Part shown: one piece after another, positions 1 to 29,172 of the stretch | Layout: the number at the start of each line of letters is the position of its first letter | How positions within the stretch are numbered: position 1 is the stretch's first letter | NCBI GenBank assembly: GCA_013285985.1 | Contig: JABDGR010000001.1 | Span: 67 to 64,066 of the forward strand | Length of the DNA: 64,000 bases | Source: Verrucomicrobiota bacterium | GTDB lineage: Bacteria; Verrucomicrobiota; Verrucomicrobiia; Opitutales; JABDGR01 | Reading direction: 5' to 3' | Position numbers and translations under genes: made by a program | Notes under the pieces: generated by a model | Told to the model about the DNA's origin: nothing | What the model saw: only the letters and a program-made list of their open reading frames with translations | The model's database searches: none

Positions 1-3000
1 GCCGGTGCCGGCAAAGTTCGGGAACGTAAGATTGGCGACACCCGGGGCGGTGGGCGTAACCTGGATGCCGTTAACCACCGCGCCGTTCGGCGAAACGCTG
101 TTGCCGTTGTAGGTCGTGGTCGCATTGCCGCCGAGCGCGCCCGTGCCGGTTTGCGGGCGAATGTTCGTCGAGACGGCTGTGGGTATATCCAAGGCCACCG
201 TTCCGTTGAACCCGGTCATGTTGCCGTTAACCGAGAGCGTGCCGGTGCTGGTCAACAACAACTCCAAGGTCACATTGGAATCCGTGCTGCGGATTTGGCC
301 CGTAATGGAACCGTTCTGGCCGCCGGGCGGATTCTGGAAAATGCTCGTGTTGTTCGAGCTAATCGGGCTGGGCGTGAGAATGTAAGAAGTGGCGTCGGAG
401 GCGCCGTTGGAGGCGTAGAAGTTGGTCACCCCGTTGCCTTCCATGAAGACAAATGTGCTGCCGGCCTGGCCCCAAATATTGCCCGAGAGCGTCGTGGATT
501 GGTCCGGCCCCAGAGAACCGGCCAGCAGGTAGATGTTGCCCGTGAAGGTGGAGTTTACCACCGTGGTGCCCGTGCTCAAAGGCGTGCCGCCCACGCCTAA
601 GACACCGCCGCCCGTCTTGAACAAATTGCCGGAGCCCTGGAGCGGGGTGATGTCACCCAGCGTGGAGTTATTTTCCGTCAAATCCATCGTCGCCCCCGTG
701 ACAACATTGATGATGCCGTTGCCCTGGATGTTGATGCTGGCGTTTTCGCCCATCGCCACGCTCGCGGTCGCCTGCAACGTGCCAATGGTGGCGGAGTTGA
801 GGGTCTGGAGATTGCCGTTGAAGTCGTAATATTGCAGTGTGTTGCTTGCATTGACGGTGCCGTTGCCGCTGCCGGTCAGGTTGACGAAGTGGTAGGCGCC
901 GGTATTGCCGGTAAGGTTGCCACTGGTGGCTGGCGACGGGCCCAAGGCCGTGTTGCTCGAGATGGACACCACGCCGCCCGAAATGGTCCACGACGTAATG
1001 TTGCTGGTCGTGAGGTTGGAGCTGTTGCCTCCGAGAACCAACGTGCCGGGGCCCGACTTGCCGATGTTGCTTGTGCCGAGCATCGCCCCGCCGATGGTCA
1101 ACGTATTGGCGGCCACATTGAAGTTGAAGTCATTCGGAATGCTCGAGTTGCCCCCAAAGGTAAAGTTACCGGTGCCGAGGCTCAAATTACCCGTGCCCAC
1201 ATAATTCAACAGTGAGGTGTTCAACGTGACGGGTACGGAAGTGAGCGACGTATTGCCCGCAGGAGCGTCAATGTTCCCAGCGTTAATGGTGAAGTTGCCC
1301 GTGCCCAAGGCGGTGCTGCCAGCACCACCACCGATGGACAAGGTGCCGCCGTTGAGGATAACGCCGCCGGAGAAGCTGCTCACCCCGCTCAAGGTTTGCT
1401 GGCCCGGGCCGTTGATCACCACGCCACCGGTCCCAGTGAGGCTGCCGCCAAACACGTCAAATACTCCCGCGGGCGGACCGAAATTCAGAGTCACCGGCTG
1501 CGGCGTCGGGGCATTAGACGGGCCATTGGTGTTCATCAAGTTCAGCGTACCATTGCCAATCAGGCCACCGATGTTCGCAGTGACAATGTTCGGGCCGAAC
1601 AGGAAATTCCCGCCCTGGTTGTCCACATCCAGCGTCGCATTTTGCGCCGCCTGCGAATTCGAGCTGCCGTTGCTGTTCAATGTCAGGTTGCCGCCCGCGT
1701 CAAAGAGCGTGCCCGAGAAGGTGTTGACGCCGTCCAAGACGAGGCTGCCGTTGCCGAACATTGTCAGGCTGCTCGGCTTGCCGCCGTTGTCGACGATGGT
1801 CGAGTTGATCGTCGTGTTGACCGGGCCAGTGTTGCCCGCACCAGTGTTGGTAGCATAGGTGGCAATAAACAATTCACCGCCAGCCGTGCCGGCTTCCAGT
1901 GTGCCGTTCAGGATGTTCACATTGTTAATAGTGGCATCGCCGACCACCCCGCTCGTCACCAAAATGCCGTTAACCGCCAGCACATTGCTGCCCAAATTCA
2001 GCGTGTTTCCGTTACCGCCATTGGGATGGCTGAAGCGCAGGGTGTTCAGCGTGAAACTGCCCGACGCGTTGATGGCGTTGGTGTTGCTTCCCGGTATGTC
2101 CGTATTCACGCCGAGACCGCCCAAGGAGCCGCCCAGCACCGTGGTGGCATCCGCCGGTTGGTCGCCAAAGTAGGGGTGAGCCGGGTCGGTCGCAACGGTG
2201 CTGTAGGGAACAATGAAATTGCCGCTGGCGCTCCTGGCGCCAAAGTCGATGCCGTTGACGATCACATAAGGCGCTCCCGTGATGAAGTCCGTAATCATCG
2301 AGCCCGCAGGGCTCTGCGGGATGGCCACCGCGTTTACATTTGCAGAGTTGGCGCCGCTAACACTATTCGTGACGAGTTCAAGCGCGCCACCCGGGTTGCG
2401 GGTCAGGGTGCTCAAGTTCATCGTCAGTACACCGGCACTGCCGCCGGTTCCCGACCCATTGTTCGTCAGGCTCAAAATCGCGCCGCCCGCGAGGGTGGTG
2501 TTGCTGACCGATTCCGTGTTCGTCGTGTTGCTCTTGCCGAGGATGGTCAGATTGCCGCCATCCAATACGAGCGTGGCGCCGGCATTCAACATGTTGTTCT
2601 GCGGGGCCGACGCCTGGGTGTGATCAAGTGTCAGCGTGCCGCCGAGGACCGAGGTTGTGCCGGTGTAAGAGTTGGCGCCGCCCAGCTGCAAAGTGCCCGC
2701 ACCGGACTTCGTCAGGCCAAAGCTGCCGCTGACGATGCCATCCATCGTCAGCGTATTATTCGCCACCACAATGTTTGGCGTGGTGTTGAGCGTCACCGTG
2801 CTGGTGCCAAAGCTCAGGCCCTCGGCGGAACCCAGATAGGTGAAGCCGTTGTTAATCACCAAGGGGACGCTGAGCGTCAGGCTCGTTACCGCAGTATTGT
2901 CAAAGCTGCCGCCATTGATGGTAAACGTACCGCTGCCCAACGCCGTGGCGCTAAGGAAGTCCAACGTGCCGGCCGACAAGGTGAAGCCGCCCACATAAAC

Positions 3001-6000
3001 GTTATTGGTGCCATTCAGTGTCAGGGTGGCATTCCCGATCTTAATCAGGCCACCGCCACCGGCGCCAGACACGCCCGGGCCGATGATATTGCCTTCAAAC
3101 GTCAGGGCGTTGGTAACATTCAACGTGCCGGTCACTCCGGTGCCGACCACCACATTGTGTCCCGATTGCAGGTCAATCGCATTACCCGTCAACAGGGTGC
3201 CAGATCCGCTGAAAGTCAGCGGCGCGGAAGCCGAGCCAAAGGCGCCGTCCGAGAAGTTTGGCGAGGGCAAACTGGTCGTGGTGTTCGTTATGTTGACATT
3301 GACGTCCAGCGTGCCGCTGTTGATGACGAAGCCGCCACCCATCGTGTTGGTGTTGCCAGTAATTAGCAAAGTGCCGTTGCCGATAAGGGCCACCGCGCCG
3401 GCCACCGCGCCGGCGCCGTTAACAATGTTGCCTCCGTAGGTCATGGTCAGGTTGGAGCCGATGTTAATCGAACCGACCGCCGTCGAGGCATTGCCCGCAT
3501 CAATGGTGCGGTTGGCATTCAGCGTGAGGTTGGCAAGGGGGTTCAGCGCGCCGCCCGACTGCGAGAGGTTCGCGGCGGAGTTGAGCGTGCCGCCCGCGAG
3601 AGTGATGGTGCCAACCGTGCCGTTAAAGGTCAGGTTGCCTGACGTGCCCGTGGCGGTATTGCCACCACCGAGAGTGTTGTCCGTCACCGCTCCGTTGGCC
3701 AATACGCCAAAACTCAAGTTACCACCCAGAACCACGATGTTGCCCACAAAGCCTTCCGAGGGAATGCCGTTAGTCACCGCCACATTGGACGTGACGTTGG
3801 CGTTATTCGCACTCAACACCAGCGTTCCCGGGCCCGTCTTGATCAATGTGTTGTTGCTGTTAAAGGAGGGATAGAAACCACTGATTGAATTAGTGTCGAC
3901 ACTGATCCCATCATTGTTGAAGTTGCCGGCGATGACGCCCGCAATCGTCAAGGTGCTGCTGGGGTTGACAATGTTAAACGTGCTGTCGCCGATCAAGGCA
4001 TAGTTCCCTGTGCCCAAACTCAGGTTGCTCGCCGTGCTGACATTGCCGAAGACAACGCCCCCGTTGACAATCGTGAAGGCGGGGGCGGTCAGCGTCATGT
4101 TCGCCCCACTCGTATTGTCCAGTCCGCCTCCCTGCAGATACAGATTAGTCGCGACACTGCCATTGGAAAACACGGTGGCACTCCCGACATTGAGCGTACC
4201 GCCATTCAGGAAGACTCCCCCGGTGAACCCGGCCACAGAACCTGTTAACGTCTGACTGCCCGGGCCCTCTATGGACAGATTCAAGCCCGTCAACGAACCA
4301 CTATAAACTGGATTCGCGTTCGACGCCGGCGTCAGGTGGATGGTAACAGCGCCGAGAGAGTCTGGGTTGTTCGCCGACCCGGCAAAACCGCCGAGATAGG
4401 TGTCGGAATCCGCCGCCGTCAAGCCGCCACCTTGGAAGTTAATGATGCTGTTCGACAGGAATTTGTTCGGCGCATTGTTATTGGCCCCCGGCGAGAACAA
4501 CGTAATAACGCCTTGATCGAGGAAGGTGGCGCCACCAAATGGCGTTTCCGAATTTGTCGGGTCATCACCAAATAACACAAGACCCGCACCCGCTTTGACC
4601 AAGTTTGTGGTGGTGCCGGTGATGCGCCCCGAGTCAATGAGGAGGCCTTCGTTATTGCTGGTGTCATTCTCTACAATCAAGATGTCGTCGCCAGCAGCCA
4701 GGGGCTGGTAGTTCATCCCCGTCAAGTTGACATTATTGCTGCCCATGGATGGCGACACAAGGATGCCTCCAACCGATACCGTGACCGCTCCGTTAAGAGA
4801 CACATCCCCCGTGGCCTGCAAGAACGACAGGGTCGACAATTGCAAGTTCGACGCCGTAACCGGGGTGCCCGGATCCGTGATGGTGGTTACATTCGCATTG
4901 TGCACGCTGTTGGTGAGCTGGGTCACGGCATTGACATTGGTATAGCCACCCGTGCCCGCCATCGCCACGATCGAGGAAGTGCCCGAGGAGCTCGCGTACG
5001 CGCCCCAGTCCGTCGAGGTCAGCGTGTTCAATACCACAAATGGCGTGCCGTTCGCATTGGCCACCGGGGTATGGCTCAAGGTTGCGTTCGAGGACGCCTG
5101 GAAAGTCAAGGTCCCGGTGGTAACATTCACGCCGCCGGTCAAGTTCACGGTCGAAAGCGTGGTCACGCTGCCCAGCCCAGAATTGACCTGGGGATTCGTG
5201 AGCGACGCCGTGACCAAATTCTCCGCGGTCACGTTCGAGTTGAACAGGCCCAGGATAACGCTGGCCTGGTTGTTTGACGCGATCAGATTACCGCTGGAAT
5301 CCGTCGACAGATTTACGATGATGTTGGTGCCAGTGATGCTCAAATTCGCCGCCGCATTGTTTGCCCCGGGATTCACGTAAGAAATAGTGATGCCGTTGCC
5401 CTGTGCGCCGACTTCGTTGGTCGAATTTGCCACAAAGGTCAGGTTATTGTTGCCGCTGACGCCCGTACCCGCCACCACTGACGGGAGATTCGTCGACAGG
5501 CTCGCGTCCGACCCGGCATCCGACAGGTACAACAGCCCGCCAGTCGTGCGCGACATCGTACCGAAATTCAGATTCAAAATCGGCCCGGCGCCGCTTGCAG
5601 CACCCGCCAGCGTGACATTGGCGATGCCCGTGCCGCCATTGACTGTCGTGGAAGCAAACGTCTGGGAGTTTGTCTGGCCCGGCACCACAATACCCTGAAC
5701 CGCCAGAGTGCCCGGCCCGTTCAATACCAGATTCGTGGGCGAAACACCGTTTCCGATAATGTTGGTCGCCGGCGCACCGGGGCTGTTGAAATTCAGCAGC
5801 AAGGTGCCGCTGTTGACGGTGGTCGTGCCCGTGTAGTTATTAAACCCGAACAGTTGCAACGTGCCGTTGCCCGTCACCGTCAACCCGCCTGTACCGGTGA
5901 TAAGGCCGCCGAAAGTCACATTGTTGACGCTCGTGTTAACTGTGCCAGTGACGCCACCCGCGAGACTGATGATCCGGGTCTTGGTCAGTGTAAAGTTGCC

Positions 6001-9000
6001 ATTGGCCTGCAAGGTCGAGGTTCCGTTGAAGAGAATCGTTGACGCCACATTCCCACCGAAGGCGGCATCGGCGGATACTCCCAGCGTTCCCGCATTGATC
6101 GTGGTATTGCCCGTATAAGTGTCCACCTGGTTCGTGCCGAGGGTCAACATACCGGTGCCCAGCTTCGTCAAGCCGCCGTCCACAGAGCCTCCGAGGGTCG
6201 AGTCGTGCACCAGGTTTTGCGAAAGAGTGATGTTGAACCCGTTTGTATTAAAGACTGCGCCGCCGCCGGAGGTGTCAATAATGGAGGTCAGCCCGGTGAT
6301 GAAGTTCGGATTGTTACCGGCCGCAATCAGGTTGCCGCCGCCCAGGATCAAAGTCGCCGACGAGTTGACCGTGGTGCCGAGGTTGGCCGCAATGATGCCA
6401 ATGGTGGTCAGGTTGCCGCCATCCAGCGCATAGCTCGCCTTGGCCGACCCCAAAGTCATCTTGGATTGGTCACCCAGAATCAGGGTGTAGTTCACCGGAT
6501 TCGTAGCGTTGCCGCTTCCCGGCAGGCCGACGCCATTGCCGGTCAACACCACATTGCCGCCTGTCTGGACGACCTTGGAAATGCTGAGGTCCGTCGGGTC
6601 GTCCTGGGTCGTGCCCTTCGACAGGTTCAAGTCATTCGCGGTCAGGTTCGCTGTGCCGCCAATGTTTAGAGTGGTGTTCGTGGTGCCAAGCGCAGCGCCA
6701 ATATTGCCCAAGGCCAATTCCAAGTTGGAGATGTATTGGCCGGAACCCGACAGCGTCACGGTGATATTGTCGCCGGGGGTGGTGGCAATGGAAGCGAAGC
6801 CCAGATTGCCGGTCGAATTCACTGTCACCAAGCCGCCGGTCCCGATGTTCAGATTAACGACATTGCCCGTCACCAACAAGTGCGCCGCGTTCAAGTTCGA
6901 GGAGAGGTTTGCCGCCCCAGTGAAGGCAAAGGTTCCGGCGCCCGCCACGGACAGCGTTTCGCCGTTGCCGGATTGATTGACCGTGCCATTCATCGTTACG
7001 GTGGTGCCGTTCAAGGTAACCGTCGTATTTGTGCCCAAAGTATCGCTGCTCGCCGAGGTGAAGAGGAAATTGCCCTGGTTGAAGTTAACGTTGCCGGACA
7101 AGTTGGTCGGATTGGCAATACTAAAGGTTCCGCCCAGGCCGTTCACCAAAGTGCCATTGTTCACCACCAGTACGCCCGTCGGAGCCAAGGCACCCGCGCT
7201 ATCCAAGTTCAACGTGCCGCCATTGAGGGTCGTATTGCCGGTGTAGGTATTGGTGCCGCTCAGCGTCAACATGCCGGAGCCAATCTTGGTGAGGCTGCCG
7301 CTGCCGATGAGGTGCAACGACGCATTGTCCGTCAGGGCGCCCGAGTAGGTCGTGTTGGCATTGTTGGCGCCCACAATCAGCGCCTCACCCACGTTGCCGG
7401 AGTTTTCCAAATCCAGAGTCTTGGTGCCGCTCAGGCCGCCCAAGGTTGCATTTACCAGCGTGCCAAAGCTCAGGTTGCCGCCCGTGATGTAATTAAGCGT
7501 GCTGTTTTGCAACGCCAGATTGGCGCCCAAAAGCAGCGTGCCTGCGGTGATGGTGGTGGTTCCGTTAAACGTGTTGTTCACCGCGAGGGTCAATGTGTTG
7601 CCCGAGCCGGACTGCGTCAGATTGCCCGTGCCGGAAATCGTGCCGTTAAACTGCAAGCTTTCGTTCTCATTGAAGAGCAACGTTCCGTTGTCGACGACGT
7701 TGCTGAACGAATTCTGCCCCTGATTGAATGTGCCGTTCGAAGTGCCGTTGCCCAATTGCAGTGTACCCGCGGTAATGATTGTGGATCCATTGTATCCCTG
7801 CACCGTGTTGTTGGCCAGAATCAAGGTCCCCGAACCAGCCTTGACCAGCGTGCCCGTGCCCGGCATGGCCGTACCCAGGGTCACCGTGTTTGCGCCGGTG
7901 TCGAAGGTGTCATTGCCGAGATTCAGCGAGGAAATTATCGGCGAAATATCGAGCGTATTGAGGCTGCCCCATTGCAGACCACCACCAGCCAGGGTGACAA
8001 GGCCCGTGCCAAAGTCGGTCAAGGAGCCCCAGTTGATCAATCCATTGTTGATAACCGTGCCGCCGGTGTAGAAGTTTTGCACCGCAAAGTTCAACGTGCC
8101 ACCGCCGGCCTTGACCAGCGTGCCGCCGCCGTGCAGTCCCGTGTTAAACGTGATGTTGTTAAGAATGTTTGTGTCAATCGTGTCGAGGCCCGAAGCCAAA
8201 CTCAGGTTGGGCGAAATATCCGTAATCGTTCCCACAGCGAATTGCACGCCGCCACCACCCAACGTGATGGTGCCCGTGCCAAACTCGTTGAGGTTATTGA
8301 AATTGATGAGGCCACCCGTAATGCTCGTGCCCGCAGTATAACTGTCGGCGGTGCCCCTCAAGGTGAGAATACCCGTGCCCGCCTTGATCAAGCTTCCGCC
8401 GGTGCCAGTCAGGTTGCCTGTGTAAGTCGTGCTGCTGTTGTTGTTGCCCACCGTGAGGGCCACGGGGTTGGTCACGTTGAGTGAAATATCCTTGGTGCCG
8501 GTCAAGCCGCCGAGAGAAGCGTTATTCAGCAAACCAAAGCTCAGGTTGCCGTTGCCTACATTGTAGCTCAGCGTGCTGTTTTGCAGCGCCAGGTTGCTGC
8601 CCAGGGCCAGGGTGCCCGCCGCGATATTCGTCGTGCCATTGAACGTGTTCGTGCCGCTCAACGTCACCGTGGTAGTCCCGGCTGTGCCGCCGGTGAGCGG
8701 GGTCAGGCCGTTCGTAAAGGTTCCGACAACCGCAGCGCCGCCGAGAGCACCCGCATTATCGCCAAAACCCAGCTGCACGTTAACCAACGCGGAGACGGTC
8801 GAATTGTTCACCAAAAGATTCAACACCTGTGCGGCCGTCGCATTGACGACCGAACTTCCATTTGTGCCCAGCGTCACAACGATTTGGTTGCCGGTTACCG
8901 CCACCGAGGTGGGAATGTTGGCGCCGGAGCCAGCCACAAAATTAATCTGCGGGATATTACCCGTGCCCGGAGCAACCGCCGTGAAGGTCAGGTTGCCATT

Positions 9001-12000: not shown

Positions 12001-15000
12001 GATGCCCGTGTAGGTGAAATTGCTGCCGTTGTTACCCACGGTCAGAGTCACGACGTTGCCGTTCAAGTCTTTGAGGGTGAAGTTCTCCGCACCCGAAAGA
12101 GCACCCAACTGGGGGTTCCCCAATGCACCACCGCCGAATTCCAGTTGACTGCCGGTGTTGACCGAATTGAACGTCGCGTTGCCCAACGCCAAGGGGTTGT
12201 CCAAGATAATGTTGCCCGCACCGGCATTGATGGAAACCGTGCCGTTAAAGGTGCTCGTGCCGCCCAAGTCCAAGTCAGGCAGGCTGTTTTGGGTGAGGAA
12301 ACCGGTCGTCCCGTTGGTCGGAGTCGCAGAAGAGCTGATATTGGCATTGAAGACGAACTTGGATCCCGCGGTGCCCGGCTCGTTGAAAATAAGCGTCGTA
12401 TTGTTGGCGCCAACCTGGATTGAACCGGCCAGATTGCCCGCCACGCCTACACCTGTTCCCACGCTTGCGTTGCCCAGCGACAGGGTCGTTGCGTTCGCGG
12501 TGGCGTTGCTGGTGCCGTTGGTGGTGACGATCAACTGGCCCGTGAAGGTTTCGTTGGCCGTGATGGTCACCGTCGATTTGAAATCTTGAATGTTCAGCGT
12601 TTGGTTGCCGCCAGTGATGGGCGTGGCCAGCACAATGCCGGCACCGCTCGGGGTGAGATTGAGGGTCAAGACGGGAGTGGCCGTGGCGTTGATAAAGTTG
12701 CCTACCGTGATGCAGGACCCGGTAATGTCGAACAATCCGCCGGAAACGGTTTGAATGGTGCCGCCGTTCCAGGTAATTCCTCCGGAGCCGATAGTGAGAT
12801 TGGCATTAGTCGTGGCTGCCGCGGTCGAATTGATGACCAATACACCGTTATCCATGACCGTGCCGCCAGTGTACGTGTTGTTGCCCGTGCCGCTCAGCAC
12901 GCTGGTATTGCCCAAGGTCAGCGTTCCCGTGCCCACTTTTATGAGTGAGCCGCCGGTGCCGCTCAAGTTGCCGGAATAGGTGGTGGAGTTATTGTTCGCG
13001 CCAACCGTCAGTGCCACGCCGGATCCGGCATACAATGACCCTTCTTGCAATATAAGATCCCGATTGCCGCTCAGGCCGCCCAGTGTGGCCGCCGTGATGG
13101 GGGTGCTGACATTGCCGAAGATCAAATTACCCACCGGGGTACCGTTGCTGTAAGATATTGTGCTGTTTTGCAAAGCGAGGGAATTGGCAATTACCAGGGA
13201 GCCCGCCGTGATGGTCGTGTTGCCCGTGAACGTGTTGACGTTCGTCAGAGTCAGGTTCGTGCTGCCCGCCTGCGTCAAGGCACCCAAGCCGGACAATACC
13301 GTGGTAAGGACGCTGTCCGTCCCCTCGCGGAAGACTAGGAGAGAGTTGTCGGTCAGGGCTGAAAACGACAACTGGCCGTTCGTGGCGCCATTGCCGAGTT
13401 GCAGGGTGCCGGCTGAAATTATGGTCGGCCCGAGGTAAACGTTATTGCCCAGCAAAGTCACACAACCTGAACCGACCTTGATAATGCCGCCCACGCCCGA
13501 GAACGGCGTGGTAACCTGGACGTTATTCCCGTTCGAGTCCAAAGTGTTCAAGTCGCTGGTCGGCCCGGAATTCAGGACGGGGTTCAGGATGCTCGACAAA
13601 TCCGTGGCCGTGTTCGGCGCCCATTGGATGCCGCCGCCCAAGAGCGTCAGGCTGTTCGCGGGGCCGTTGCCGAAATTCTTGAGCGAATTAAAGTCGATCA
13701 AGCCACCCTCAACCACGGTTCCACCAGCATAGGTATTGTTGCCGCTCAAGGTCAAGGTGCCCGCGCCAACCTTGATCAGCGAGCCACTGCCATTGCCGAT
13801 GTTACCCGAAATGGTTCCGGAGAACGTGCTGCTCGCGCCACCCTGACCCAGCGTCAACGTCACCGGATTGTCGCCCGCCTGGGTGACCAGCGCGAGACTG
13901 CCATTGCCGCTGAGGCCGCCCATCGTCGCCGATGTCTGCGTGCCAAAGCTGAAATTCCCCGCGCCGCTGTTCAGCCCCAGGATGCTGTTCTGCAACGCCT
14001 GCGGATTACCCAAAACCAGCGTGCCGGCATCAACATTGGTCACGCCCGTGTAGGAATTGACTCCGGAAAGGGTCAGCGTGCTTTGCGCCGGGGCCGCGCC
14101 GTTGCCGAGGGTGAACGGGGAACCCCCTGTCGCACTCAGTACGCCGGTACCGTCACTACCCGATCCAATCCCCGCGATCACCGTGGCGTTCGAGGTCGCA
14201 TTGCCATTGATCGCCGCAACCACCGCGGCCGCGTTGCTAAAGTTCGGGTTCGTCCCGCCCGCCAGGGCCGTCGAGGTGAGTGCACTGACATTACCCGCTC
14301 CCGTGCTGCCCACCGGCAACGACGCGGTAACGAACGCCGCGGCCGTCGGATTCGTGTTAATCAAAGTCACGATGGACGAAGAGTTTGAAGTGATGACTCC
14401 GCCACTCGTCGCCAGGTTCACGGTAATCGTGTTGCTCGTGATGCTTAAATTCGCCGTCGGATTGTTCGCATTTGCGCTCGAATAGACGATGGCGATGTTG
14501 GAGCCCTGCTGGCCGAACCAGGCTGTTGAGTTCGCGGTGAACGTCACATCCGCGTTGTTGCCAAAGGTCGTCGTCAGGTTCGCCGCCGTACCGGTGTTGT
14601 CGGTGCCCAAAGTTACCGTAAGCGTATTGCTCCCAAACGCCACCGTCACCGGCTGGTTGGCCAGGTAGGCAAACGTGGGGGCGACATAAGCGACCTGGAT
14701 CCCGTTGCCGGCTGTCCCAATCGCCTGCGAGCGATAGATGATGTTCGTATTGGAGCCGGGATTCGTGATGATCGACGCCGGGGTGCCTTGATTGACCTCC
14801 ACATTGCCGCTGCCCGTAATAGCTTTACTGTAAGTCGTGGCCGAGGGCTCGTTGAACACCAAGTCGCCGTCGTCGAGAATATTGCCGGCAATTGAACCCG
14901 CATTGGTGATATTGCCTAACTTGAGGGTACCCGAAAGGATCGACGTGTCGCCCGTGTAAGTCTCCGTCTGAGTGTAGGTCACACTGCCATTGCCGCCAAC

Positions 15001-18000
15001 CACCGACACCCCACCCCCGCCCGCCAGTGCGCGTGCCGACAGCACCACATCATTGCTGTTCGTGATGAAGGACACACAGCCCGAGCCGATGCCGGTCGTG
15101 GTGTTCATTACTGCACTGACGTCCGTGGTGGTTCCCGGCGCCCAAATCAGGGCCGCATTGTTGACCGTGACGCTGGCGTTCGCCGGGTTGCCGAACACAT
15201 TATTCGAATTGAAATTGATGCCGCCACCACCGCTGATGGTGGTTGTGCCGTTGTAGGTGTTGGTACCCGTCAGGGTCAGGATGCCGGTGCCCACTTTGGT
15301 GAAGCTGCCGGACACCACGTTGGTGTCGGTCAAGGCGCCCGTGTAGGTCGTATTCGCGTTGTTCAGGCCGACCGTGAGGTTCATCGCGGCGTTGGAGGCG
15401 TTGGACAAGTCGATGTTGTTGCTTCCGCTCAAGCCACCCAGGGTCGCATTCGTCAGCGCCAGGAAGCTGACATTGCCATCACCTATGTTGGTCTGCAGAG
15501 TGCTATTGGCCAGCGCGAGGTTACTGCCCAGGAACAACGTACCGCCGCTGTTGACCACAGTGACGCCGTTAAAGGTGTTATTGCCCGACAGCGTCAAGTT
15601 ACCCACGCCGGTCTTGGTCAATCCGCCCGTGCCGGACAGTATGGCCGAGATCGTCTCATCGCTCGTGTTCGTGTCCAGCGTGCTCGTGCCGCCATTGATG
15701 AAATTGGTGGAGAGCGTCCCACCGGCATTGGAGCTGACGTTGGCAATGGGGGCAAACATGTTGCCCGAACCGGCCGCAATGGTCACCATCGAGGCGAGGG
15801 TCGTGTTGCCTTGGAGTAAGGCGAGGAGTTGCTGCCCGGTGGTGGTGACGGTGCCGTTGGTGGTGGCCAGTTGCACATTAATCGTGGTGCCGCTGATGCT
15901 CAGGCCCAGGGATTGGTTGCCCGAACCGGTGCCGTTGGCAAACGTGGCATTGCCGATCAGGTTGAGGAGGAGATTGTTGCCATTCGCAGCGTAGACCGTG
16001 CTGTTGGTTCCGATAGCCGTCAGGTTGATGACGTTATTGAAGTTGCTGGACGAGACGCCGTTCGCGAGGAGGTTGTTAATGATGCTGGCCGTGGCATTGC
16101 CGATGGTCAGGTTCGAATTCAACTGGCTGGAAATGTTTGTCTGCGTGTTGACGGCCCATTGCAGAGTGCCGCCCAGCAAGGTGACATTGCCCGTGCCCAA
16201 GGCTTGCAGGCTGTTGAAGTTAAGTATGCCGCCATTAACGATGACGCCGCCCGAGAATGTGTTGTTGGCCACCAATGACAACGTGCCGGTGTCCACCTTC
16301 ATCAAAGATCCATTGCCGGAGAGCGACGAGGCGAATTGGACGTTGCTGCCATTCGTGTCGAAAACGTCGTTGCCCGAATTCGGCGAAATATTGCCCACCA
16401 AGCCGCCGAACTTGCCATTGATCTGGCCCGAGATGTCCTCGTTCGTTCCCGACGCCCATTGCAGGCCGCCGTTCAGCAGGGTAATATTGCCCGAGCCAAA
16501 ATTCGTCGGCGAATTGAAGTTAATCAGCCCGCCATTGGCCACCGTGCCACCGGAATAGATGCTGGTGCCGGTCAGCGTCAAAATGCCCGTGCCCGACTTG
16601 ATTAGATTACCCGAGCCGAAAAGCTGGCCGCCGTACGTCGAATTCTGCGAGCCCTGAATGACCAGGCTGATGGGGTTGCCGGTGGCGGGATTCGTCAGCG
16701 CAAAGGGCAAAATGCTGGTCAAACCACCGAGGCGCACGACGGGCTGGGTGCCATAATTGATGGTGCCGTTTTGGTAGACCAAGGTCGCGTTCTGCAGCTC
16801 ATTTTCCGTGGCGCTGATGTCGAGGGTGCCGCCGGTGAGGGTAACATTGCCATTAAAAGTGTTGTTGTTAGGATTGTTAAATTTGACTGTGTTGTTGCCC
16901 GCGGCGGTGCCGCCCGCCAGCGCAGTCGCAGTCAGGTTTGCCAGCGCTATGGTCCCATTGCCGGTGTTGGCGGAGGGGCCGGCCTCCAGCGTCACCGTGG
17001 CATTGGCCAGGAGCGCCGTACCGTTGGCCCCCAAGCTTCCATTGCCCAACGCGGTCAAAAATAGTGACGCGGTTGTGGTGGGTGTACCACTGGTAGTGGC
17101 TAGATTGATCGTAAAGGTCGTCACCGCGCCGACGGTAGAGCACGAAATCGAAAGCGGAACGGTGCCCGTATTAATCACATAGGCAATTTTTATGTTGTTG
17201 CCCACCGTGCCCGGCGTCACCGAGGTGAACGTCAGGCCGCTCTGCCCGGTCGTCCCCGACGTGGCGTTGGCAAAGCCCGTGTTCAACGCCGCGGTAGCAC
17301 CGGGGGTGGCACCGTTCAGGGTGATGTTGCCCGAACCGGAAATGACGCCGGAGAAAGTCACCGAGCCGTTTTCACTGACCGTCATGTTCGCGTTGTCCAC
17401 AATGGCATAGTCCACGGTGGAGTTGCTGGTGTTCGCATAACTGCCCGTTGTAAAGTTGCCGTATTGCAACGTGCCGCCGTTAATGAACATGGTGCCCAAG
17501 CTCACGAGGGAGCCGTTGGAATTCGCGCTCTTCAGCGTGAAGTTTCCATCAGCCAGGGTCAGGGTGCCAAGGCCGGCCTTGATGATGTCAACCGTAGTGA
17601 AAGAACCGGCGGTGTTGGTGCTTACAACACCGGCGGTCATGGGATTCGCCGCAAAGGTGATGTTGTTGCCGTTCGTGTCGAAAGTATTAAAGATGGTGGT
17701 GTTGGCCTGAATGTTGCCGGTGGTTCCGACCGAGCCGCCGATGCTGGCGCCGGACATGCGGAGGGAAAGGTCCCCGTTATCCCCCGGAACCGTATTGGAA
17801 AAGCCGGTCGCCGGATTAATATAGTTGGGCGCCCATTGCAAGGTGCCGCCATCCATCTGGATGGCGGGCAGCGTGCCCGCCGAGGTGGGACCGCCAAAAT
17901 TATTCAATTGGTTAAAATCAATCGTGCCGCCGCTGCTGAACAGGGTCGCGCCGGTGGTGGCGTTGGTGTTCGTCGGCGTAATGGTGGTGGTGCCGCTGAA

Positions 18001-19800
18001 GGTGTTGTTGCCCGTCAGGGTCAGGGTGCCCGTCCCGGTCTTGATCAAGGTGCCGATGGCCGAGGTGTTGGCATTATTACCCGTCAACACGCCGCTATAG
18101 GTTGTGTTCTGGCTGTTCGTCCCGATGGTGTAGGCGACGGACTGCTGCCCGTTGAAGGTCAGTGCGAGGTTTTGGTTGCCGTTCAAGCCACCCAGGGTGA
18201 CGTTGGTAATCGTGGCCGCGCTCAAGGCGATGGCGCCGCCCGGGGTGACATAGTTCAGCGTCGCGTTCTGCAACGAAAGATTGGTGCCCAGGGTCAGGAC
18301 GAGGCCGGAGGCAATGTTCACCGTGCCGCTAAAGGTATTCGTCGCATTGAACTCCGTGCCGTTGACGGCCGCACTGCCGTTGACGATATTAATGATGCCA
18401 TTGCCGGAGATCGCGCCGCCAAAGACCACTGCATCCGCCGTGCTCTCATTGATGGTTAACACACCGTTATCGACGATGGCACCTCCGATGTTCACTTTAC
18501 CACCCGAGATGTTACCGCCGCCAACCGTGCCAAAATTGCTGGTGCTGCTTCCGCCAGTGCCCAGTTGCAGTGTGCCGCCCGCATTAATGGTCGTTGACCC
18601 AGTGTAATTGTTCAGGGTCGCGTTTACTGCTGCCGCCGAGCCCGTGAAAATCACCGTGTCCGGGGCAACCAGGGTCACCGCACCAGCACCGGTAATGTGG
18701 TTCGTAAACGTGGTGTTACCCGCCTGGTCGAACGTCAGCGTGCCGCCGTCATTCACGTTGCCGGTTAACGTGGCATTATTCGTAAAGTTGCCCAACTGGA
18801 CGGTGCCGGCGCTGATGACCAGGGTGGTGCCGTTGGCGGTCGACGTGCCAAAGTTATCCGTGCCAACCAGGATGATGCGGCCGTTGCTGCCCGCCTTGGT
18901 CAGGAGCCCCTGGCCAACCACATTGTTCAAGGTCAGGTTGGTGCCGTTGTCGGTGAAGGTCGAGTTGGCGGTAATGTTCACCCCGCTGTTAAAGGTCATC
19001 GTGTTGTTGCCCGTGCCCGCGTAGACGAAGTTGTTCTGGACGATTACCGGGGTCGAAAGCACGATCGCCGTGTTGCCGCTGTTGTTGATGTTGCCGCCGG
19101 TGATGACCAGGTTACCCGCACCCGCCGCCCCGTTGTTGTTCAGGAACAGCGTGCCCGAGTTGAAAGTCAGATTGCCGCCGAAGGTATTCACTCCCGAGAG
19201 CACCACCGTGCCGATGCTCGTGTTGGTGCCGCCGATTTCCAGGCCGAAATGGCTGCCGCCATCGCTGATGATCCCGGTCACGTTCAGCGTGGTCGAAGTG
19301 CCGGAAACCCATTGCTGCGTCGCCGCCAACACCACGTTCGCCGCCAGGTTCAGGTTTTGCGTCGAGTTGCTCAAATCAATGCCGATGGGGGTGGTCGTGT
19401 CCAGCAGGGGCCCGGTTTGAAACCCGGTTGCGAGGCCGGCGAGTGTCAGGTTCGCGGTCAGATTGCTCAGATTGGGCGCAATGGTGACGGTGCCCTGCGG
19501 ATTCAGAAGCTGGATTGCGCCGAACGTGACCCCGTTGCCCACCGTCACGGTCGTGTTGAACGATTCGACGGTTCCGTTCCAAATTCCCAAGTCAGTCGCG
19601 GTCGGCGTGGTGTCGCCGCCGACGCCGGGAATCCAACTCGTGGCCGTGTCGAGCGCGGCGTTGGTGTCCGCCTTGAAGATGGTGTTTTGCGCGTGGACGC
19701 CGGGGGGCGCGAACAACGCGGCCAGCAGGGCGGCCAAAACAAAGGTGGTCCCGAGCCGGAGTTTGTTCCGGCGGTGGTAGGTTTGGAGGGGGACGTTCAT
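1..19800 (-). CDS. Giant secreted beta-strand-repeat protein (autotransporter-associated beta strand repeat / PATR type), first 6,600 codons; C-terminus lies beyond the left window edge
   Basis: The rc ATG at 19800 opens MNVPLQTYHRRNKLRLGTTFVLAALLAALFAPPGVHAQ (signal-peptide-like). Hand translation of the same minus frame at 17040-16981, 12060-12001, 7320-7201, 3060-3001 and 60-1 stays open and gives PATR text, e.g. GSGSLTKIGSGMLTLSGTNTYTGNTTLNGGTLNLD and GGLIKIGNATLTLNGTNN. None of the listed minus ORFs in 1-19800 is in this frame, as expected if the frame reaches no stop before position 1. Confidence 0.85.
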   Translation of the reverse strand, partial: MNVPLQTYHRRNKLRLGTTFVLAALLAALFAPPGVHAQNTIFKADTNAALDTATSWIPGVGGDTTPTATDLGIWNGTVESFNTTVTVGNGVTFGAIQLLNPQGTVTIAPNLSNLTANLTLAGLATGFQTGPLLDTTTPIGIDLSNSTQNLNLAANVVLAATQQWVSGTSTTLNVTGIISDGGSHFGLEIGGTNTSIGTVVLSGVNTFGGNLTFNSGTLFLNNNGAAGAGNLVITGGNINNSGNTAIVLSTPVIVQNNFVYAGTGNNTMTFNSGVNITANSTFTDNGTNLTLNNVVGQGLLTKAGSNGRIILVGTDNFGTSTANGTTLVISAGTVQLGNFTNNATLTGNVNDGGTLTFDQAGNTTFTNHITGAGAVTLVAPDTVIFTGSAAAVNATLNNYTGSTTINAGGTLQLGTGGSSTSNFGTVGGGNISGGKVNIGGAIVDNGVLTINESTADAVVFGGAISGNGIINIVNGSAAVNGTEFNATNTFSGTVNIASGLVLTLGTNLSLQNATLNYVTPGGAIALSAATITNVTLGGLNGNQNLALTFNGQQSVAYTIGTNSQNTTYSGVLTGNNANTSAIGTLIKTGTGTLTLTGNNTFSGTTTITPTNTNATTGATLFSSGGTIDFNQLNNFGGPTSAGTLPAIQMDGGTLQWAPNYINPATGFSNTVPGDNGDLSLRMSGASIGGSVGTTGNIQANTTIFNTFDTNGNNITFAANPMTAGVVSTNTAGSFTTVDIIKAGLGTLTLADGNFTLKSANSNGSLVSLGTMFINGGTLQYGNFTTGSYANTSNSTVDYAIVDNANMTVSENGSVTFSGVISGSGNITLNGATPGATAALNTGFANATSGTTGQSGLTFTSVTPGTVGNNIKIAYVINTGTVPLSISCSTVGAVTTFTINLATTSGTPTTTASLFLTALGNGSLGANGTALLANATVTLEAGPSANTGNGTIALANLTATALAGGTAAGNNTVKFNNPNNNTFNGNVTLTGGTLDISATENELQNATLVYQNGTINYGTQPVVRLGGLTSILPFALTNPATGNPISLVIQGSQNSTYGGQLFGSGNLIKSGTGILTLTGTSIYSGGTVANGGLINFNSPTNFGSGNITLLNGGLQWASGTNEDISGQINGKFGGLVGNISPNSGNDVFDTNGSNVQFASSLSGNGSLMKVDTGTLSLVANNTFSGGVIVNGGILNFNSLQALGTGNVTLLGGTLQWAVNTQTNISSQLNSNLTIGNATASIINNLLANGVSSSNFNNVINLTAIGTNSTVYAANGNNLLLNLIGNATFANGTGSGNQSLGLSISGTTINVQLATTNGTVTTTGQQLLALLQGNTTLASMVTIAAGSGNMFAPIANVSSNAGGTLSTNFINGGTSTLDTNTSDETISAILSGTGGLTKTGVGNLTLSGNNTFNGVTVVNSGGTLFLGSNLALANSTLQTNIGDGNVSFLALTNATLGGLSGSNNIDLSNASNAAMNLTVGLNNANTTYTGALTDTNVVSGSFTKVGTGILTLTGTNTYNGTTTISGGGGINFNSNNVFGNPANASVTVNNAALIWAPGTTTDVSAVMNTTTGIGSGCVSFITNSNDVVLSARALAGGGGVSVVGGNGSVTYTQTETYTGDTSILSGTLKLGNITNAGSIAGNILDDGDLVFNEPSATTYSKAITGSGNVEVNQGTPASIITNPGSNTNIIYRSQAIGTAGNGIQVAYVAPTFAYLANQPVTVAFGSNTLTVTLGTDNTGTAANLTTTFGNNADVTFTANSTAWFGQQGSNIAIVYSSANANNPTANLSITSNTITVNLATSGGVITSNSSSIVTLINTNPTAAAFVTASLPVGSTGAGNVSALTSTALAGGTNPNFSNAAAVVAAINGNATSNATVIAGIGSGSDGTGVLSATGGSPFTLGNGAAPAQSTLTLSGVNSYTGVTNVDAGTLVLGNPQALQNSILGLNSGAGNFSFGTQTSATMGGLSGNGSLALVTQAGDNPVTLTLGQGGASSTFSGTISGNIGNGSGSLIKVGAGTLTLSGNNTYAGGTVVEGGLIDFNSLKNFGNGPANSLTLLGGGIQWAPNTATDLSSILNPVLNSGPTSDLNTLDSNGNNVQVTTPFSGVGGIIKVGSGCVTLLGNNVYLGPTIISAGTLQLGNGATNGQLSFSALTDNSLLVFREGTDSVLTTVLSGLGALTQAGSTNLTLTNVNTFTGNTTITAGSLVIANSLALQNSTISYSNGTPVGNLIFGNVSTPITAATLGGLSGNRDLILQEGSLYAGSGVALTVGANNNSTTYSGNLSGTGGSLIKVGTGTLTLGNTSVLSGTGNNTYTGGTVMDNGVLVINSTAAATTNANLTIGSGGITWNGGTIQTVSGGLFDITGSCITVGNFINATATPVLTLNLTPSGAGIVLATPITGGNQTLNIQDFKSTVTITANETFTGQLIVTTNGTSNATANATTLSLGNASVGTGVGVAGNLAGSIQVGANNTTLIFNEPGTAGSKFVFNANISSSATPTNGTTGFLTQNSLPDLDLGGTSTFNGTVSINAGAGNIILDNPLALGNATFNSVNTGSQLEFGGGALGNPQLGALSGAENFTLKDLNGNVVTLTVGNNGSNFTYTGILTGAGGSLNKIGGGCMTIVGAQTYSGPTGFGAGTLQLGNGTNLGSVASTSFNGSGILDFDGTASTQTLGTSGTPVTIVGVGGQLIVNGTSGYVVNFTGDASGMTGTTTVAKNNSLQLNNSVSVAITNPVTQVVTVSNFAPLGGAISDAGTLILAIPGTNTISNAISSNGSLNITAGTDTFTANNSFNGTVNIGNGATAILGSPLAFFNATVNITNLVATNNGTLSFAGLPAGTTSANIGALSGNENLDISNLNFNVGFVASTTYSGVLSSSNGQANLTMTGNNTSFTLTSPQTYNGTTTVINGSLILGNQTQNPATLLSTSTGCITVTSNGSVNSTLTFNGTNAAATFSQVVIGNGGIVVGGKSGQILTINSTQLYTGATNVSANNQLTIGDGATGSIASGSTFNDSGTINFNQPAGQQIITNNWTGAGSLALLGVSNIDLTPTTTSLNGTVTIAQGANLTLGTNIALQNATLNITLLNAATNGSFSFGSLTNASIGGLTGNVNLALSNNVSAPVALTIGNTPTATSNYNGTLTGSAVITKAGSNNQAFSGNLDTTGGVNINGGTLTLNGTTSNGFTGNVIVTGASVNFTINGAFGNSTNSAPQATNQLELNGGTLVFGATTLDPTNSATGVPNLLATNGLLGGTNIFSLGANSTTISGNIGGLGNLTVSTSGVGVLTLAGMGTFTGFTNISTGTLTLANTSALGGSTFNATTGKLLFGTPTAYTFGGLSGTVANGSALTLTSSGGSAVTLTIGNNNQSTTFTGLINSTAASNAANLVKIGTGTLTLAQGANASNISIPNAFLGTTTINGGFIDFSTLGVFGSNTTANTTAHPLGTTGAEITLSGGGLQWATGAIIDMTRDVVLGGSSTTLDSFDTNGNNEQLSYNLLNGSGVFGKAGNGTLTITQPETWTGTSGGAGTVISGGTLQIGNGTLLGGTGTNTTVPSLPTTGILDNANLSIVAGSAQTISSVISGTGNLTINGTNVGRASLDTSNVLGAGVANGNLTFTAVAPGTGNIPQINFVAGSGANIPTSVAVTGNQIVVTLGTNGSSVVNATAAQVLNLLVNNSTVSALVNVQLGFGDNAGALGGAAVVGTFTNGLTPLTGGTAGTTTVTLSGTNTFNGTTNIAAGTLALGSNLALQNSTLSYNVGNGNLSFGLLNNASLGGLTGTKDISLNVTNPVALTVGNNNSSTTYTGNLTGTGGSLIKAGTGILTLRGTADSYTAGTSITGGLINFNNLNEFGTGTITLGGGGVQFAVGTITDISPNLSLASGLDTIDTNILNNITFNTGLHGGGTLVKAGGGTLNFAVQNFYTGGTVINNGLINWGSLTDFGTGLVTLAGGGLQWGSLNTLDISPIISSLNLGNDTFDTGANTVTLGTAMPGTGTLVKAGSGTLILANNTVQGYNGSTIITAGTLQLGNGTSNGTFNQGQNSFSNVVDNGTLLFNENESLQFNGTISGTGNLTQSGSGNTLTLAVNNTFNGTTTITAGTLLLGANLALQNSTLNYITGGNLSFGTLVNATLGGLSGTKTLDLENSGNVGEALIVGANNANTTYSGALTDNASLHLIGSGSLTKIGSGMLTLSGTNTYTGNTTLNGGTLNLDSAGALAPTGVLVVNNGTLVNGLGGTFSIANPTNLSGNVNFNQGNFLFTSASSDTLGTNTTVTLNGTTVTMNGTVNQSGNGETLSVAGAGTFAFTGAANLSSNLNAAHLLVTGNVVNLNIGTGGLVTVNSTGNLGFASIATTPGDNITVTLSGSGQYISNLELALGNIGAALGTTNTTLNIGGTANLTANDLNLSKGTTQDDPTDLSISKVVQTGGNVVLTGNGVGLPGSGNATNPVNYTLILGDQSKMTLGSAKASYALDGGNLTTIGIIAANLGTTVNSSATLILGGGNLIAAGNNPNFITGLTSIIDTSGGGAVFNTNGFNITLSQNLVHDSTLGGSVDGGLTKLGTGMLTLGTNQVDTYTGNTTINAGTLGVSADAAFGGNVASTILFNGTSTLQANGNFTLTKTRIISLAGGVTGTVNTSVNNVTFGGLITGTGGLTVTGNGTLQLFGFNNYTGTTTVNSGTLLLNFNSPGAPATNIIGNGVSPTNLVLNGPGTLAVQGIVVPGQTNSQTFASTTVNGGTGIANVTLAGAASGAGPILNLNFGTMSRTTGGLLYLSDAGSDASLSTNLPSVVAGTGVSGNNNLTFVANSTNEVGAQGNGITISYVNPGANNAAANLSITGTNIIVNLSTDSSGNLIASNNQASVILGLFNSNVTAENLVTASLTNPQVNSGLGSVTTLSTVNLTGGVNVTTGTLTFQASSNATLSHTPVANANGTPFVVLNTLTSTDWGAYASSSGTSSIVAMAGTGGYTNVNAVTQLTNSVHNANVTTITDPGTPVTASNLQLSTLSFLQATGDVSLNGAVTVSVGGILVSPSMGSNNVNLTGMNYQPLAAGDDILIVENDTSNNEGLLIDSGRITGTTTNLVKAGAGLVLFGDDPTNSETPFGGATFLDQGVITLFSPGANNNAPNKFLSNSIINFQGGGLTAADSDTYLGGFAGSANNPDSLGAVTIHLTPASNANPVYSGSLTGLNLSIEGPGSQTLTGSVAGFTGGVFLNGGTLNVGSATVFSNGSVATNLYLQGGGLDNTSGANMTLTAPAFTIVNGGVVFGNVSTASNLSLGTGNYALIGDSTFNIVNPSSTLTIAGVIAGNFNNDGISVDTNSISGFYPSFNSNNTLIKTGPGTLVLSANNANVTSNVAVTNGIPSEGFVGNIVVLGGNLSFGVLANGAVTDNTLGGGNTATGTSGNLTFNGTVGTITLAGGTLNSAANLSQSGGALNPLANLTLNANRTIDAGNASTAVGSINIGSNLTMTYGGNIVNGAGAVAGAVALIGNGTLLITGNTNTMGGGFVINSGTLDVNVNITNTTTSLPSPNFSDGAFGSASAPLTFSGSGTLLTGNAIDLQSGHNVVVGTGVTGTLNVTNALTFEGNIIGPGVSGAGGGGLIKIGNATLTLNGTNNVYVGGFTLSAGTLDFLSATALGSGTFTINGGSFDNTAVTSLTLSVPLVINNGFTYLGSAEGLSFGTSTVTLNTTPNIVVANNTLTMDGIVSGSFGLTKSGAGTLQLGGANSYTGTTSVLGGTLTLDHTQASAPQNNMLNAGATLVLDGGNLTILGKSNTTNTESVSNTTLAGGAILSLTNNGSGTGGSAGVLTMNLSTLTRNPGGALELVTNSVSGANSANVNAVAIPQSPAGSMITDFITGAPYVIVNGIDFGARSASGNFIVPYSTVATDPAHPYFGDQPADATTVLGGSLGGLGVNTDIPGSNTNAINASGSFTLNTLRFSHPNGGNGNTLNLGSNVLAVNGILVTSGVVGDATINNVNILNGTLEAGTAGGELFIATYATNTGAGNTGPVNTTINSTIVDNGGKPSSLTMFGNGSLVLDGVNTFSGTLFDAGGNLTLNSNGSSNSQAAQNATLDVDNQGGNFLFGPNIVTANIGGLIGNGTLNLMNTNGPSNAPTPQPVTLNFGPPAGVFDVFGGSLTGTGGVVINGPGQQTLSGVSSFSGGVILNGGTLSIGGGAGSTALGTGNFTINAGNIDAPAGNTSLTSVPVTLNTSLLNYVGTGNLSLGTGNFTFGGNSSIPNDFNFNVAANTLTIGGAMLGTSNIGKSGPGTLVLGGNSSNLTTSNITSWTISGGVVSISSNTALGPSPATSGNLTGNTGAYHFVNLTGSGNGTVNASNTLQYYDFNGNLQTLNSATIGTLQATASVAMGENASINIQGNGIINVVTGATMDLTENNSTLGDITPLQGSGNLFKTGGGVLGVGGTPLSTGTTVVNSTFTGNIYLLAGSLGPDQSTTLSGNIWGQAGSTFVFMEGNGVTNFYASNGASDATSYILTPSPISSNNTSIFQNPPGGQNGSITGQIRSTDSNVTLELLLTSTGTLSVNGNMTGFNGTVALDIPTAVSTNIRPQTGTGALGGNATTTYNGNSVSPNGAVVNGIQVTPTAPGVANLTFPNFAGTG

Positions 19801-20542: not shown

Positions 20543-20562
20543 AATATTATTATAATAATATT
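20543..20562. repeat. Perfect 20-bp all-A/T palindrome AATATTATTA|TAATAATATT followed by a T-rich run; function unknown (operator or AU hairpin)
   Basis: Read directly; the sequence is its own reverse complement. It lies 103 nt downstream of the radical SAM stop, in the long leader region of the giant gene. Confidence 0.8.
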
Positions 20563-20664
20563 TTTAATTTTTATTAGGACGAATGCCCCGATCGAAGCAC
20601 AATTTCGAGTTCTCTGAAGCTAACGCATTATAAATTAGGAAAAACACGACCTGATCCCGCCGCT

Positions 20665-21765: not shown

Positions 21766-21836
21766 AGTGAACATAATAGCACATATTCGTCGCGGTGCAA
21801 ACAAATAGTATCACGGCAAAAAACGCCCTCCTCCTT

Positions 21837-27813: not shown

Positions 27814-29172
<1,359 letters not shown>

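Follow-up and report, generated by a model that had tools for sequence, protein, structure and literature searches.

A giant PATR-repeat protein gene cut by the end of a Verrucomicrobiota contig, its orthologs and the conserved spacer upstream of it

We analysed a 64,000-nucleotide stretch of contig JABDGR010000001.1 from a Verrucomicrobiota bacterium (hereafter the window). Positions 1–19800, read on the minus strand, are in our judgement quite likely the 5′ two thirds of one real gene for a giant extracellular protein, a β-helical surface fibre or adhesin. At full length the protein probably has about 8,600–10,000 amino acids (aa) or more. The frame that encodes it is free of stop codons from 19950 down to position 1, where its codons end in register, and this run of 6,650 codons cannot have arisen by chance; the next-longest open stretch in the window has 1,979 codons. 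The first ATG of the gene is at 19800, so that the visible coding part amounts to 6,600 codons (19.8 kb). A preliminary description of this DNA had claimed a minus-strand frame of more than 6,600 codons that is still incomplete. The claim is confirmed, and the scan for in-frame stops that it proposed for 1–19800 found none.

The frame also has the composition of a gene. Its GC content at codon positions 1, 2 and 3 is 0.47, 0.53 and 0.78 (third-position GC, GC3, 0.776), and this third-position bias is that of neighbouring and housekeeping genes in the window, which argues that the giant frame is real coding sequence. Plus-strand open reading frames (ORFs) lie within the same 19.8 kb, for example 1396–3366 (+) and 6736–8484 (+), and reach 656 aa. 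Their GC is highest at position 1; because their codon-position GC mirrors that of the giant frame, they are antisense shadows, not genes. The giant gene itself is missing from the ORF list of the window, as had been remarked. The listing rule omits ORFs that run off the source, and the omission is a listing convention without biological signal.

Translation from 19800 opens with basic residues, continues into a hydrophobic core and reaches a VHA/QN cleavage-type site, the layout of the typical cleavable signal peptide proposed for this position (Table 1). The N termini of five orthologs are of this kind too and start at the corresponding position, which supports the assigned start. An N-terminal Sec signal peptide, one of the features by which type Va autotransporters are recognized, is therefore present in the giant protein. 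We infer Sec rather than Tat export since the RR pair of the signal peptide is not conserved; the pair varies in orthologs, and Tat export was rejected.

Its profile matches place the protein in the PATR/TIGR02601 repeat family. PF12951 (PATR) matches 10 stretches in one half and 12 in the other, 22 in all (E 2.8e-30 and 2.2e-27; 104.5 and 95.2 bits, cut-off 27), and TIGR02601 scores 92.4 and 70.3 bits (cut-off 19.85). PATR-type units had been read from the letters, and the hidden Markov model (HMM) check suggested at the time places both families far above cut-off. Models for the autotransporters ShdA, fusolisin and EprS gave sub-threshold matches, all within PATR regions. The PATR units are sparse, a strict regular expression picking up only five to ten of them. 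In self-comparison, nearly every 200-aa segment has dozens of internal matches at 25–50% identity. A module HMM grown from the segment between two ALQNSTL boxes found 26 segments with about 15 module starts, spaced 270–500 aa apart and covering 66% of the protein, in agreement with the irregularly spaced super-repeats described before. The best-defined of these opens with an ALQNSTL box and holds PATR-type GxGxLxLxGxNTYxGxT units.

The boxes also account for an antisense text, MLFC(N/S/K)A, that had been noted as a recurrent mirror of an LQNSTL box. It is found at all four sites named, 7499 (VLFCNA), 8573 (VLFCSA), 13160 (VLFCKA) and 13982 (MLFCNA), with a further copy at 2591, and the four mirror ALQNS(T/I)(L/I) boxes at residues 4096, 3738, 2209 and 1935 that open four modules; three of the four begin with V (GTG), not with M as had been written. 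The protein is rich in Gly (16%), Thr (15.5%) and Asn (12.8%), together 44%, with 4.2% charged residues and a pI of about 4. Its visible mature part has 6,560 residues and a mass of 643 kDa. Hydrophobic residues recur with periodicity peaks at 20–21, 40 and 81 residues. The last 411 aa in the window show little internal repetition, and a homolog search with the last 350 aa gave zero matches at E≤1e-5. The protein contains 316 N-x-S/T sequons, against 202±12 expected from composition, and at least part of this excess is a product of the repeat consensus.

One 358-aa super-repeat (aa 3738–4095) was modelled with AlphaFold2 from an alignment of 14 internal repeats. The model (pLDDT 82, pTM 0.80) has about 35 short β strands and two one-turn helices, a predicted strand layout with the pattern of a β-solenoid. 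The only sequence match in the PDB is the passenger of the autotransporter IcsA (5ke1; E 2.8e-6). The weak matches returned by Foldseek are all β-helix proteins, among them fusolisin, IcsA, Ssp, VacA, tailspikes and PL6 lyases.

These features suggest how the protein might be built and used. Sec would carry it across the inner membrane, with cleavage of the signal peptide. The roughly 15 diverged super-repeats of 270–500 aa, made of PATR-type β-strand units, would then stack into a long β-helix of about 20–21 residues per rung. At 4.8 Å per rung, the 6,560 visible mature residues would form a rod of about 150 nm, and a protein of 10,000 aa one of about 230 nm. A C-terminal sorting module beyond the window would display or release the protein at the cell surface, and the displayed rod would serve as a cell-surface fibre or adhesin. 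A β-helical surface fibre or adhesin of 150–250 nm is the most likely role, in keeping with proposals that other giant proteins serve in adhesion (10.1101/2023.11.21.568195).

Several points weigh against this reading. The model covers only one 358-aa module, and the alignment behind it is shallow. Foldseek gave no significant match (best E 0.23, TM-scores of about 0.2), so that three things carry the β-helix call: how the strands are arranged, the hydrophobic periodicity and the homology to PATR and IcsA. Surface attachment is a proposal, the C terminus being beyond view in this organism and in every ortholog, and the role too is put forward from sequence. Moreover, the ortholog is broken in two ENA assemblies, for which either errors in sequencing or genuine decay of the gene in those lineages may be responsible.

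The last point belongs to a different explanation of the long frame, namely that it is an assembly artefact (a chimera, or a collapsed or expanded array) or a decaying pseudogene. The source contig does break inside the gene, as do the contigs of loci L003, L006 and L012, and frameshifts and a stop interrupt the ortholog in the two ENA assemblies. We nevertheless hold this explanation to be highly improbable. The 6,650 codons contain no stop, and the array is not of a kind that assemblers confuse: Tandem Repeats Finder reports three tiny arrays and nothing else, the dispersed DNA repeat copies are 60–78% identical and at most 191 nt long, the protein copies are at most 50% identical, and the longest exact repeat inside 1–19800 is 19 nt, a length below any usual assembly k-mer. 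An independent Logan assembly (SRR8422748, L006; 14,720 bp) is identical to window positions 14954–29673 with 0 mismatches. Because the repeats are old and diverged, exact repetition is this short and the independent assembly agrees, collapse or expansion is very unlikely in the assembled part, and the concern raised earlier, that such an array is prone to either, does not apply to the part in the window. The protein is further collinear with four orthologs over its whole length, two orthologs are intact (10,038 and 13,079 aa), and two separate samples yielded the 10,038-aa ortholog with the same sequence throughout the 9.1 kb (3,036 codons) that could be compared.

The reading of a real giant gene was followed into its ortholog family by way of the radical-SAM (rSAM) gene that lies directly upstream. 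A homolog search with the rSAM protein of the window returned about 30 homologs at 72–88% identity, and the contigs of several of these were examined. All examined orthologs are downstream of the rSAM gene and begin with the same kind of signal peptide. A HMMER scan with aa 3600–4300 matched 14,330 library proteins at E≤0.001, many of them 3,000–6,576 aa long. The best match, P0121 (5,501 aa), is on ENA contig L003 directly after a 504-aa ORF whose N terminus, MNAPHQTRFDRTRLRLGIILILGALLAALFVPTGARGQ..., corresponds to that of the window protein, and further PATR ORFs follow P0121 up to the contig end. P0121 was thus rejected as a full ortholog and is the middle piece of one. Between residues 1 and about 6,450 of the window protein, the L003 pieces run collinear to it at 30–69% identity, with a steadily growing offset. 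The N-terminal 3,000 residues of the 10,038-aa ortholog are likewise collinear to it, at 36–68% identity and near-zero offset.

The ortholog on L007, L010 and L011 continues past the window end. Its ten called pieces have 1,714, 2,909, 1,595, 244, 589, 630, 936, 193, 165 and 1,014 aa. The window's last 411 aa align (31% identity) to residues 5–356 of the 936-aa piece on L011, and beyond this alignment the ortholog runs on for at least about 2,050 codons, to the last, 1,014-aa piece seen. It is this continuation that places the window gene at about two thirds of its protein. It also indicates that the source record stops inside the giant gene, since the source contig (65,711 bp) extends at most 1.7 kb past the 64,000 covered by the window; the rSAM protein (as a 100%-identical 323-aa entry), the enolase and the 1,854-aa paralog described below all map to that contig. 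Leftward extension was attempted by scanning genome, metagenome and viral contigs with the in-window C-terminal 500 aa, which gave no self-match, and by a two-sequence profile scan of genome contigs, which gave a single 30% relative in a Verrucomicrobiaceae metagenome-assembled genome. Neither the last 1,200 aa nor the last 350 aa retrieved an ortholog in homolog searches, and a word-index search also missed the L003 pieces. The splits in the two ENA metagenome assemblies (four pieces on L003, ten in the other) reflect either long-read indel errors or real decay, and databases hold the ortholog pieces as separate 'PATR proteins'.

The rSAM gene is upstream of the giant ortholog, on the same strand, in L003, L007, L008/L009, L012 and L013. 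Close homologs of the rSAM protein are annotated only as 'DNA repair photolyase'. The rSAM gene, a spacer of about 870 nt and the giant gene form a block common to all six relatives, and the genes upstream of the rSAM gene vary (paralog/enolase, YbjQ, esterases/lipases, DUF6242 proteins, ferredoxin/amidohydrolase). The spacer is better conserved in DNA than the giant protein is in amino acids (giants 30–69% identical). Its upstream half contains the invariant blocks TGTGAATAAC, ATTGTGAG, AACGTTAT and TTTTCGCTCTGAAAAAAAG, a further invariant block is CCTAATAGCGATTATTACGCCGATGAATG, and an A-rich box, CCTTTAAAAATAAAAAAC, stands about 90 nt before the giant start codon. These motifs occur once per locus and nowhere else in the loci. 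One conserved box resembles a promoter and may function as one; a consensus promoter scanner did not call it, and matches to it in L001 and L002 were set aside as chance, lying inside PATR coding region. A terminator-like hairpin follows the rSAM gene, and the giant gene therefore probably has its own promoter.

Downstream of the putative promoter, the pairs of a 14-bp hairpin are kept in six relatives, with one-sided changes only and no compensatory ones. In a smaller hairpin, TTTCCCTCGGGAAA, L007 has one extra C and one extra G and the stem is kept. RNAalifold recovered both hairpins; since their paired columns are nearly constant, hardly any covariation was detected. The folding stability of the entire leader is unremarkable (z = −1.2), and Rfam has no match in the spacer. 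A conserved leader peptide read from an ATGAAT in the spacer was considered and is unlikely, the six translations agreeing only where the DNA is conserved. The spacer also has an ATG-to-hairpin segment of fixed distance. It is conceivable that rSAM gene, spacer and giant gene are, instead of a frozen accident, a functional unit in which the spacer acts as a cis-regulatory leader for a 30–39 kb gene and the rSAM enzyme modifies the giant protein, a proposal from sequence conservation that we consider doubtful as a whole. If it were true, the spacer would be an undescribed leader controlling transcription or translation of a 30–39 kb gene. The conserved leader is in any case a concrete and testable candidate for a regulatory element.

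Table 1. Coordinates of the giant gene, its repeats, the upstream spacer, the neighbouring paralog and the orthologs. Locus and database names are given where a feature lies outside the window.
Feature	Position	Strand	Evidence or remarks
Giant PATR-repeat protein gene, first 6,600 codons, roughly two thirds	1..19800	−	Leaves window at left edge; stop-free frame, PF12951/TIGR02601, GC3, orthologs
Start codon and 38-aa signal peptide MNVPLQTYHRRNKLRLGTTFVLAALLAALFAPPGVHA, then QNT	19687..19800	−	Sequence reading; same N-terminal pattern in orthologs
Full-length super-repeat, aa 1002–1343	15772..16797	−	Module HMM 268 bits, profile positions 2–342
Super-repeat, aa 2209–2535, opening with an ALQNSTI box	12196..13176	−	Module HMM; antisense reads VLFCKA at 13160
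Best-defined full super-repeat, aa 3738–4087	7540..8589	−	Module HMM 397 bits; AlphaFold2 model
Last 411 aa in window, atypical	1..1233	−	Weak self-BLAST; homologs are orthologs only
Non-coding spacer, 867 nt	19801..20667	−	Length (820–890 nt) and sequence blocks kept across six relatives
Promoter-like box (T/G)GTTGC-N16-AATAAT inside TTTTTTTACAATAATGG	20172..20203	−	TTTACAATAATGG core invariant in six relatives
14-bp hairpin AACGCGAGUGUUCCC ... GGGAAUGCCGCGUU (ACGCGAGTGTTCCC...GGGAATGCCGCGT), presumed 5′ leader	20099..20138	−	RNAalifold consensus; centroid fold
Terminator-like hairpin after rSAM gene	20663–20646	−	Giant gene probably has its own promoter
PA0069-family radical-SAM gene	20668..21765	−	NF033668, E 4.5e-135, 450 bits (cut-off 360)
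1,854-aa paralog	21840..27401	−	Own signal peptide, 14 TIGR04393 repeats, 5 PATR units, C-terminal domain ending FLRVEAQTVP
Spacer in other loci	L003 7622–8489 (868 nt); L007 10973–11841; L008 11102–11991; L012 11117–11950; L013 11180–11999		
Ortholog, L003	8490–31640		Four called pieces; at least 7,717 codons once two frameshifts and one in-frame stop are bridged
Ortholog, L008/L009 (NCBI GCA_964490755.1 and Logan SRR12170508)			10,038 aa; wholly inside both contigs; about 161,491–191,610 of CAZBDW010000014.1
Ortholog, L013 (ENA ERZ27245396)			13,079 aa; complete; about 19,519–58,760 of k141_358095
Ortholog, L007/L010/L011 (ENA ERZ26871208)	L010 4822–28730; L011 1–24788		Ten called pieces; at least 10,232 codons
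Ortholog, L012 (JGI)			Cut by contig end after 811 aa

The preliminary description had pointed out that export and anchoring are out of sight because the C terminus is outside the window; it is outside the 65.7-kb source contig as well. The last visible ortholog piece, of 1,014 aa, has only a weak PATR match on record and may not be the gene end. We therefore surveyed the tails of 265 relatives, which are not orthologs: 118 end in PEP-CTERM-like motifs, an autotransporter barrel closes at least 27, 5 have a domain of the type found in the neighbouring paralog, and about a dozen more have a terminal F/W of the outer-membrane protein (OMP) type. The ranking this yields for the giant protein, PEP-CTERM before barrel before paralog-type domain, is a prior, not a finding. 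Through a PEP-CTERM/exosortase route, a C-terminal PEP motif, hydrophobic helix and basic tail would be cleaved by exosortase and the protein attached or released at the surface. We regard this as a serious possibility, short of a probable one. Besides the 118 of the 265, it draws on the 38 composition-matched relatives, whose intact ends are PEP-CTERM in 17 cases, OMP/autotransporter-like in 6 and paralog-type in 2, and on P0001, the best match to the in-window C-terminal part, which carries PF07589. The surveyed relatives are, however, non-orthologs, the neighbouring paralog has no PEP-CTERM, exosortase is absent from the 26 window ORFs scanned against Pfam, and the 1,014-aa L011 piece offers just its weak PATR match, though PF07589 is a short model whose matches often go unnoticed.

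A classical type Va autotransporter, in which a 12-stranded C-terminal β-barrel in the outer membrane would carry the β-helical passenger to the surface, appears unlikely. By definition PATR is a repeat of autotransporter passengers, the IcsA passenger is the one sequence relative with a solved structure, and the relatives with a recognisable barrel include the 6,576-aa P0124. Yet the barrel-bearing relatives are more charged, differ in the style of their repeats and look mostly proteobacterial or chlamydial; several begin with the extended signal peptide MNxIYRxxWN, which the giant protein lacks. Neither is PF03797, a long and sensitive model, on record for the 1,014-aa piece, and the paralog has no barrel. 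We think it rather improbable that the giant protein ends instead in the paralog's unannotated, β-rich domain of about 130 aa (...ANLLRYAMNLD...FLRVEAQTVP). Only 2 kb lie between the paralog and the giant, the two proteins are 50% identical along about 250 aa, and the domain recurs in P0159, P0213, P0152 (4,708 aa), P0041 and P0067; against this, those five are all the relatives with the domain among the 265, and nothing ties it to the giant's ortholog family. As the defining C-terminal feature is beyond view, the giant protein cannot be filed under either type Va autotransporters or PEP-CTERM proteins. The tail of one further relative, the 5,779-aa PATR protein P0155, is a long, non-repetitive, charged region closing ...GIHHANNHVGGRAPGKWAEVF, with no anchor; it presumably resembles the nuclease-type toxin tips of polymorphic toxins, and some PATR giants may deliver effectors.

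As a probable surface fibre or adhesin of the PATR type, the protein has its closest likeness in the PATR proteins of Verrucomicrobiota and Planctomycetota. Both have the repeat signature, a composition rich in Gly, Thr and Asn and low in charge, a signal peptide at the N terminus, and a modular architecture of the form 'ALQNSTL ... GxGxLxLxGxNTYxGxT'. The giant differs from them in length, most matches having 1,000–3,500 aa and the largest among 150 listed 6,576 aa, and in forming a separate ortholog group, the best non-ortholog matches being 35–48% identical over a partial span. It resembles the type Va passengers (IcsA/VirG, ShdA, fusolisin, EprS) in its sequence similarity to IcsA and its predicted all-β, solenoid-like fold, whereas it is five to ten times longer, lacks the extended signal peptide and has no protease or other functional head domain; neither the window nor the paralog nor the ortholog pieces on record show a β-barrel translocator. 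The features of giant adhesins of the RTX/type I secretion system class are likewise missing: the N-terminal signal peptide is cleavable, the giant has no RTX or Ca-binding repeat matches, and no type I secretion genes are present among the scanned window ORFs. TIGR04393 has zero matches in either half of the giant.

Giant bacterial genes are defined as single ORFs of more than 5 kb by the criterion of Reva and Tummler as applied in PMC5177795. The visible 19.8 kb and the orthologs of 30.1 and 39.2 kb are well within this definition. Like the giant genes of the Planctomycetes–Verrucomicrobia–Chlamydiae (PVC) group (Reva and Tummler 2008; PMC5177795; West-Roberts et al. 2023 preprint), the gene is above 20 kb, repetitive and probably surface-located, and assemblies often break inside it. 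The giants of Omnitrophota (up to 85,804 aa) have mixed domain content, and the window giant is far smaller and made essentially of one repeat type. Proteins of this size had been called rare at the outset. This does not hold for the group, where the present one is large but not exceptional: its own orthologs have 10,038 and 13,079 aa, the planctomycete Fuerstia marisgermanicae alone is reported to have 45 giant genes above 5 kb, with genes up to 36 kb (PMC5177795), and of the 10,000 longest BV-BRC proteins 7,478 are gap-free, all of at least 10,624 aa (10.1101/2023.11.21.568195). The giant is a new instance of a PATR protein and of a PVC giant gene, and departs from what is known of neither.

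What goes beyond the ordinary is the definition of an ortholog family of 10,000–13,000 aa together with its strongly conserved leader. Judged from the loci compared here, this collinear family, tied to the rSAM gene and the leader, is a new result. Metagenome assemblies and ORF lists routinely drop giant repeat proteins or break them up, and this case shows both: the gene is missing from the ORF list, four assemblies cut it at a contig end, and a further one carries it as up to ten called pieces. Once one family of this length is recognized by signal peptide, rSAM neighbour and leader, the annotation of many 'partial PATR proteins' is put right. Making a protein of about 1 MDa is very costly for a cell, and the protein therefore probably shapes the attachment of these largely uncultured bacteria to surfaces or cells.

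The relative of about 1,850 aa that had been placed 2 kb upstream on the same strand is present, with 1,854 aa, and the same product is found on the Logan contig. TIGR04393 (T5SS/PEP-CTERM-associated) matches 14 stretches of it with 229 bits. The paralog shares strand and repeat family with the giant; unlike the giant, it is complete and carries TIGR04393. Its C-terminal domain of about 130 aa has no Pfam or NCBIfam match and may be an undescribed sorting or cell-wall domain.

Other genes in the window are ordinary and include those for enolase, an S46 peptidase, RNase R, CTP synthase, FtsK, a Mur ligase and APS kinase. Three ORFs of 365–571 aa, at 39983–41698 (+), 42122–43219 (+) and 43322–44521 (−), have gene-like codon-position GC and no Pfam match; ORFs at 29277–29918, 32366–33052 and 46140–46952 have no Pfam match either, and their GC3 is lower (0.55–0.59). 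Five tandem paralogous genes at 56131–62959 (+) encode proteins of 419–450 aa whose first 170 aa hold ECF-type sigma-70 regions 2 and 4, followed by a C-terminal extension of about 250 aa without clear family match, apart from one weak match to DUF3597. At 36524–38400, a Fic/DOC gene (−) and a ClpP-like protease gene (+) are divergently arranged. Their GC3 (0.43 and 0.50) is far below that of their neighbours (0.70–0.88), which suggests that the pair was recently acquired by horizontal transfer.

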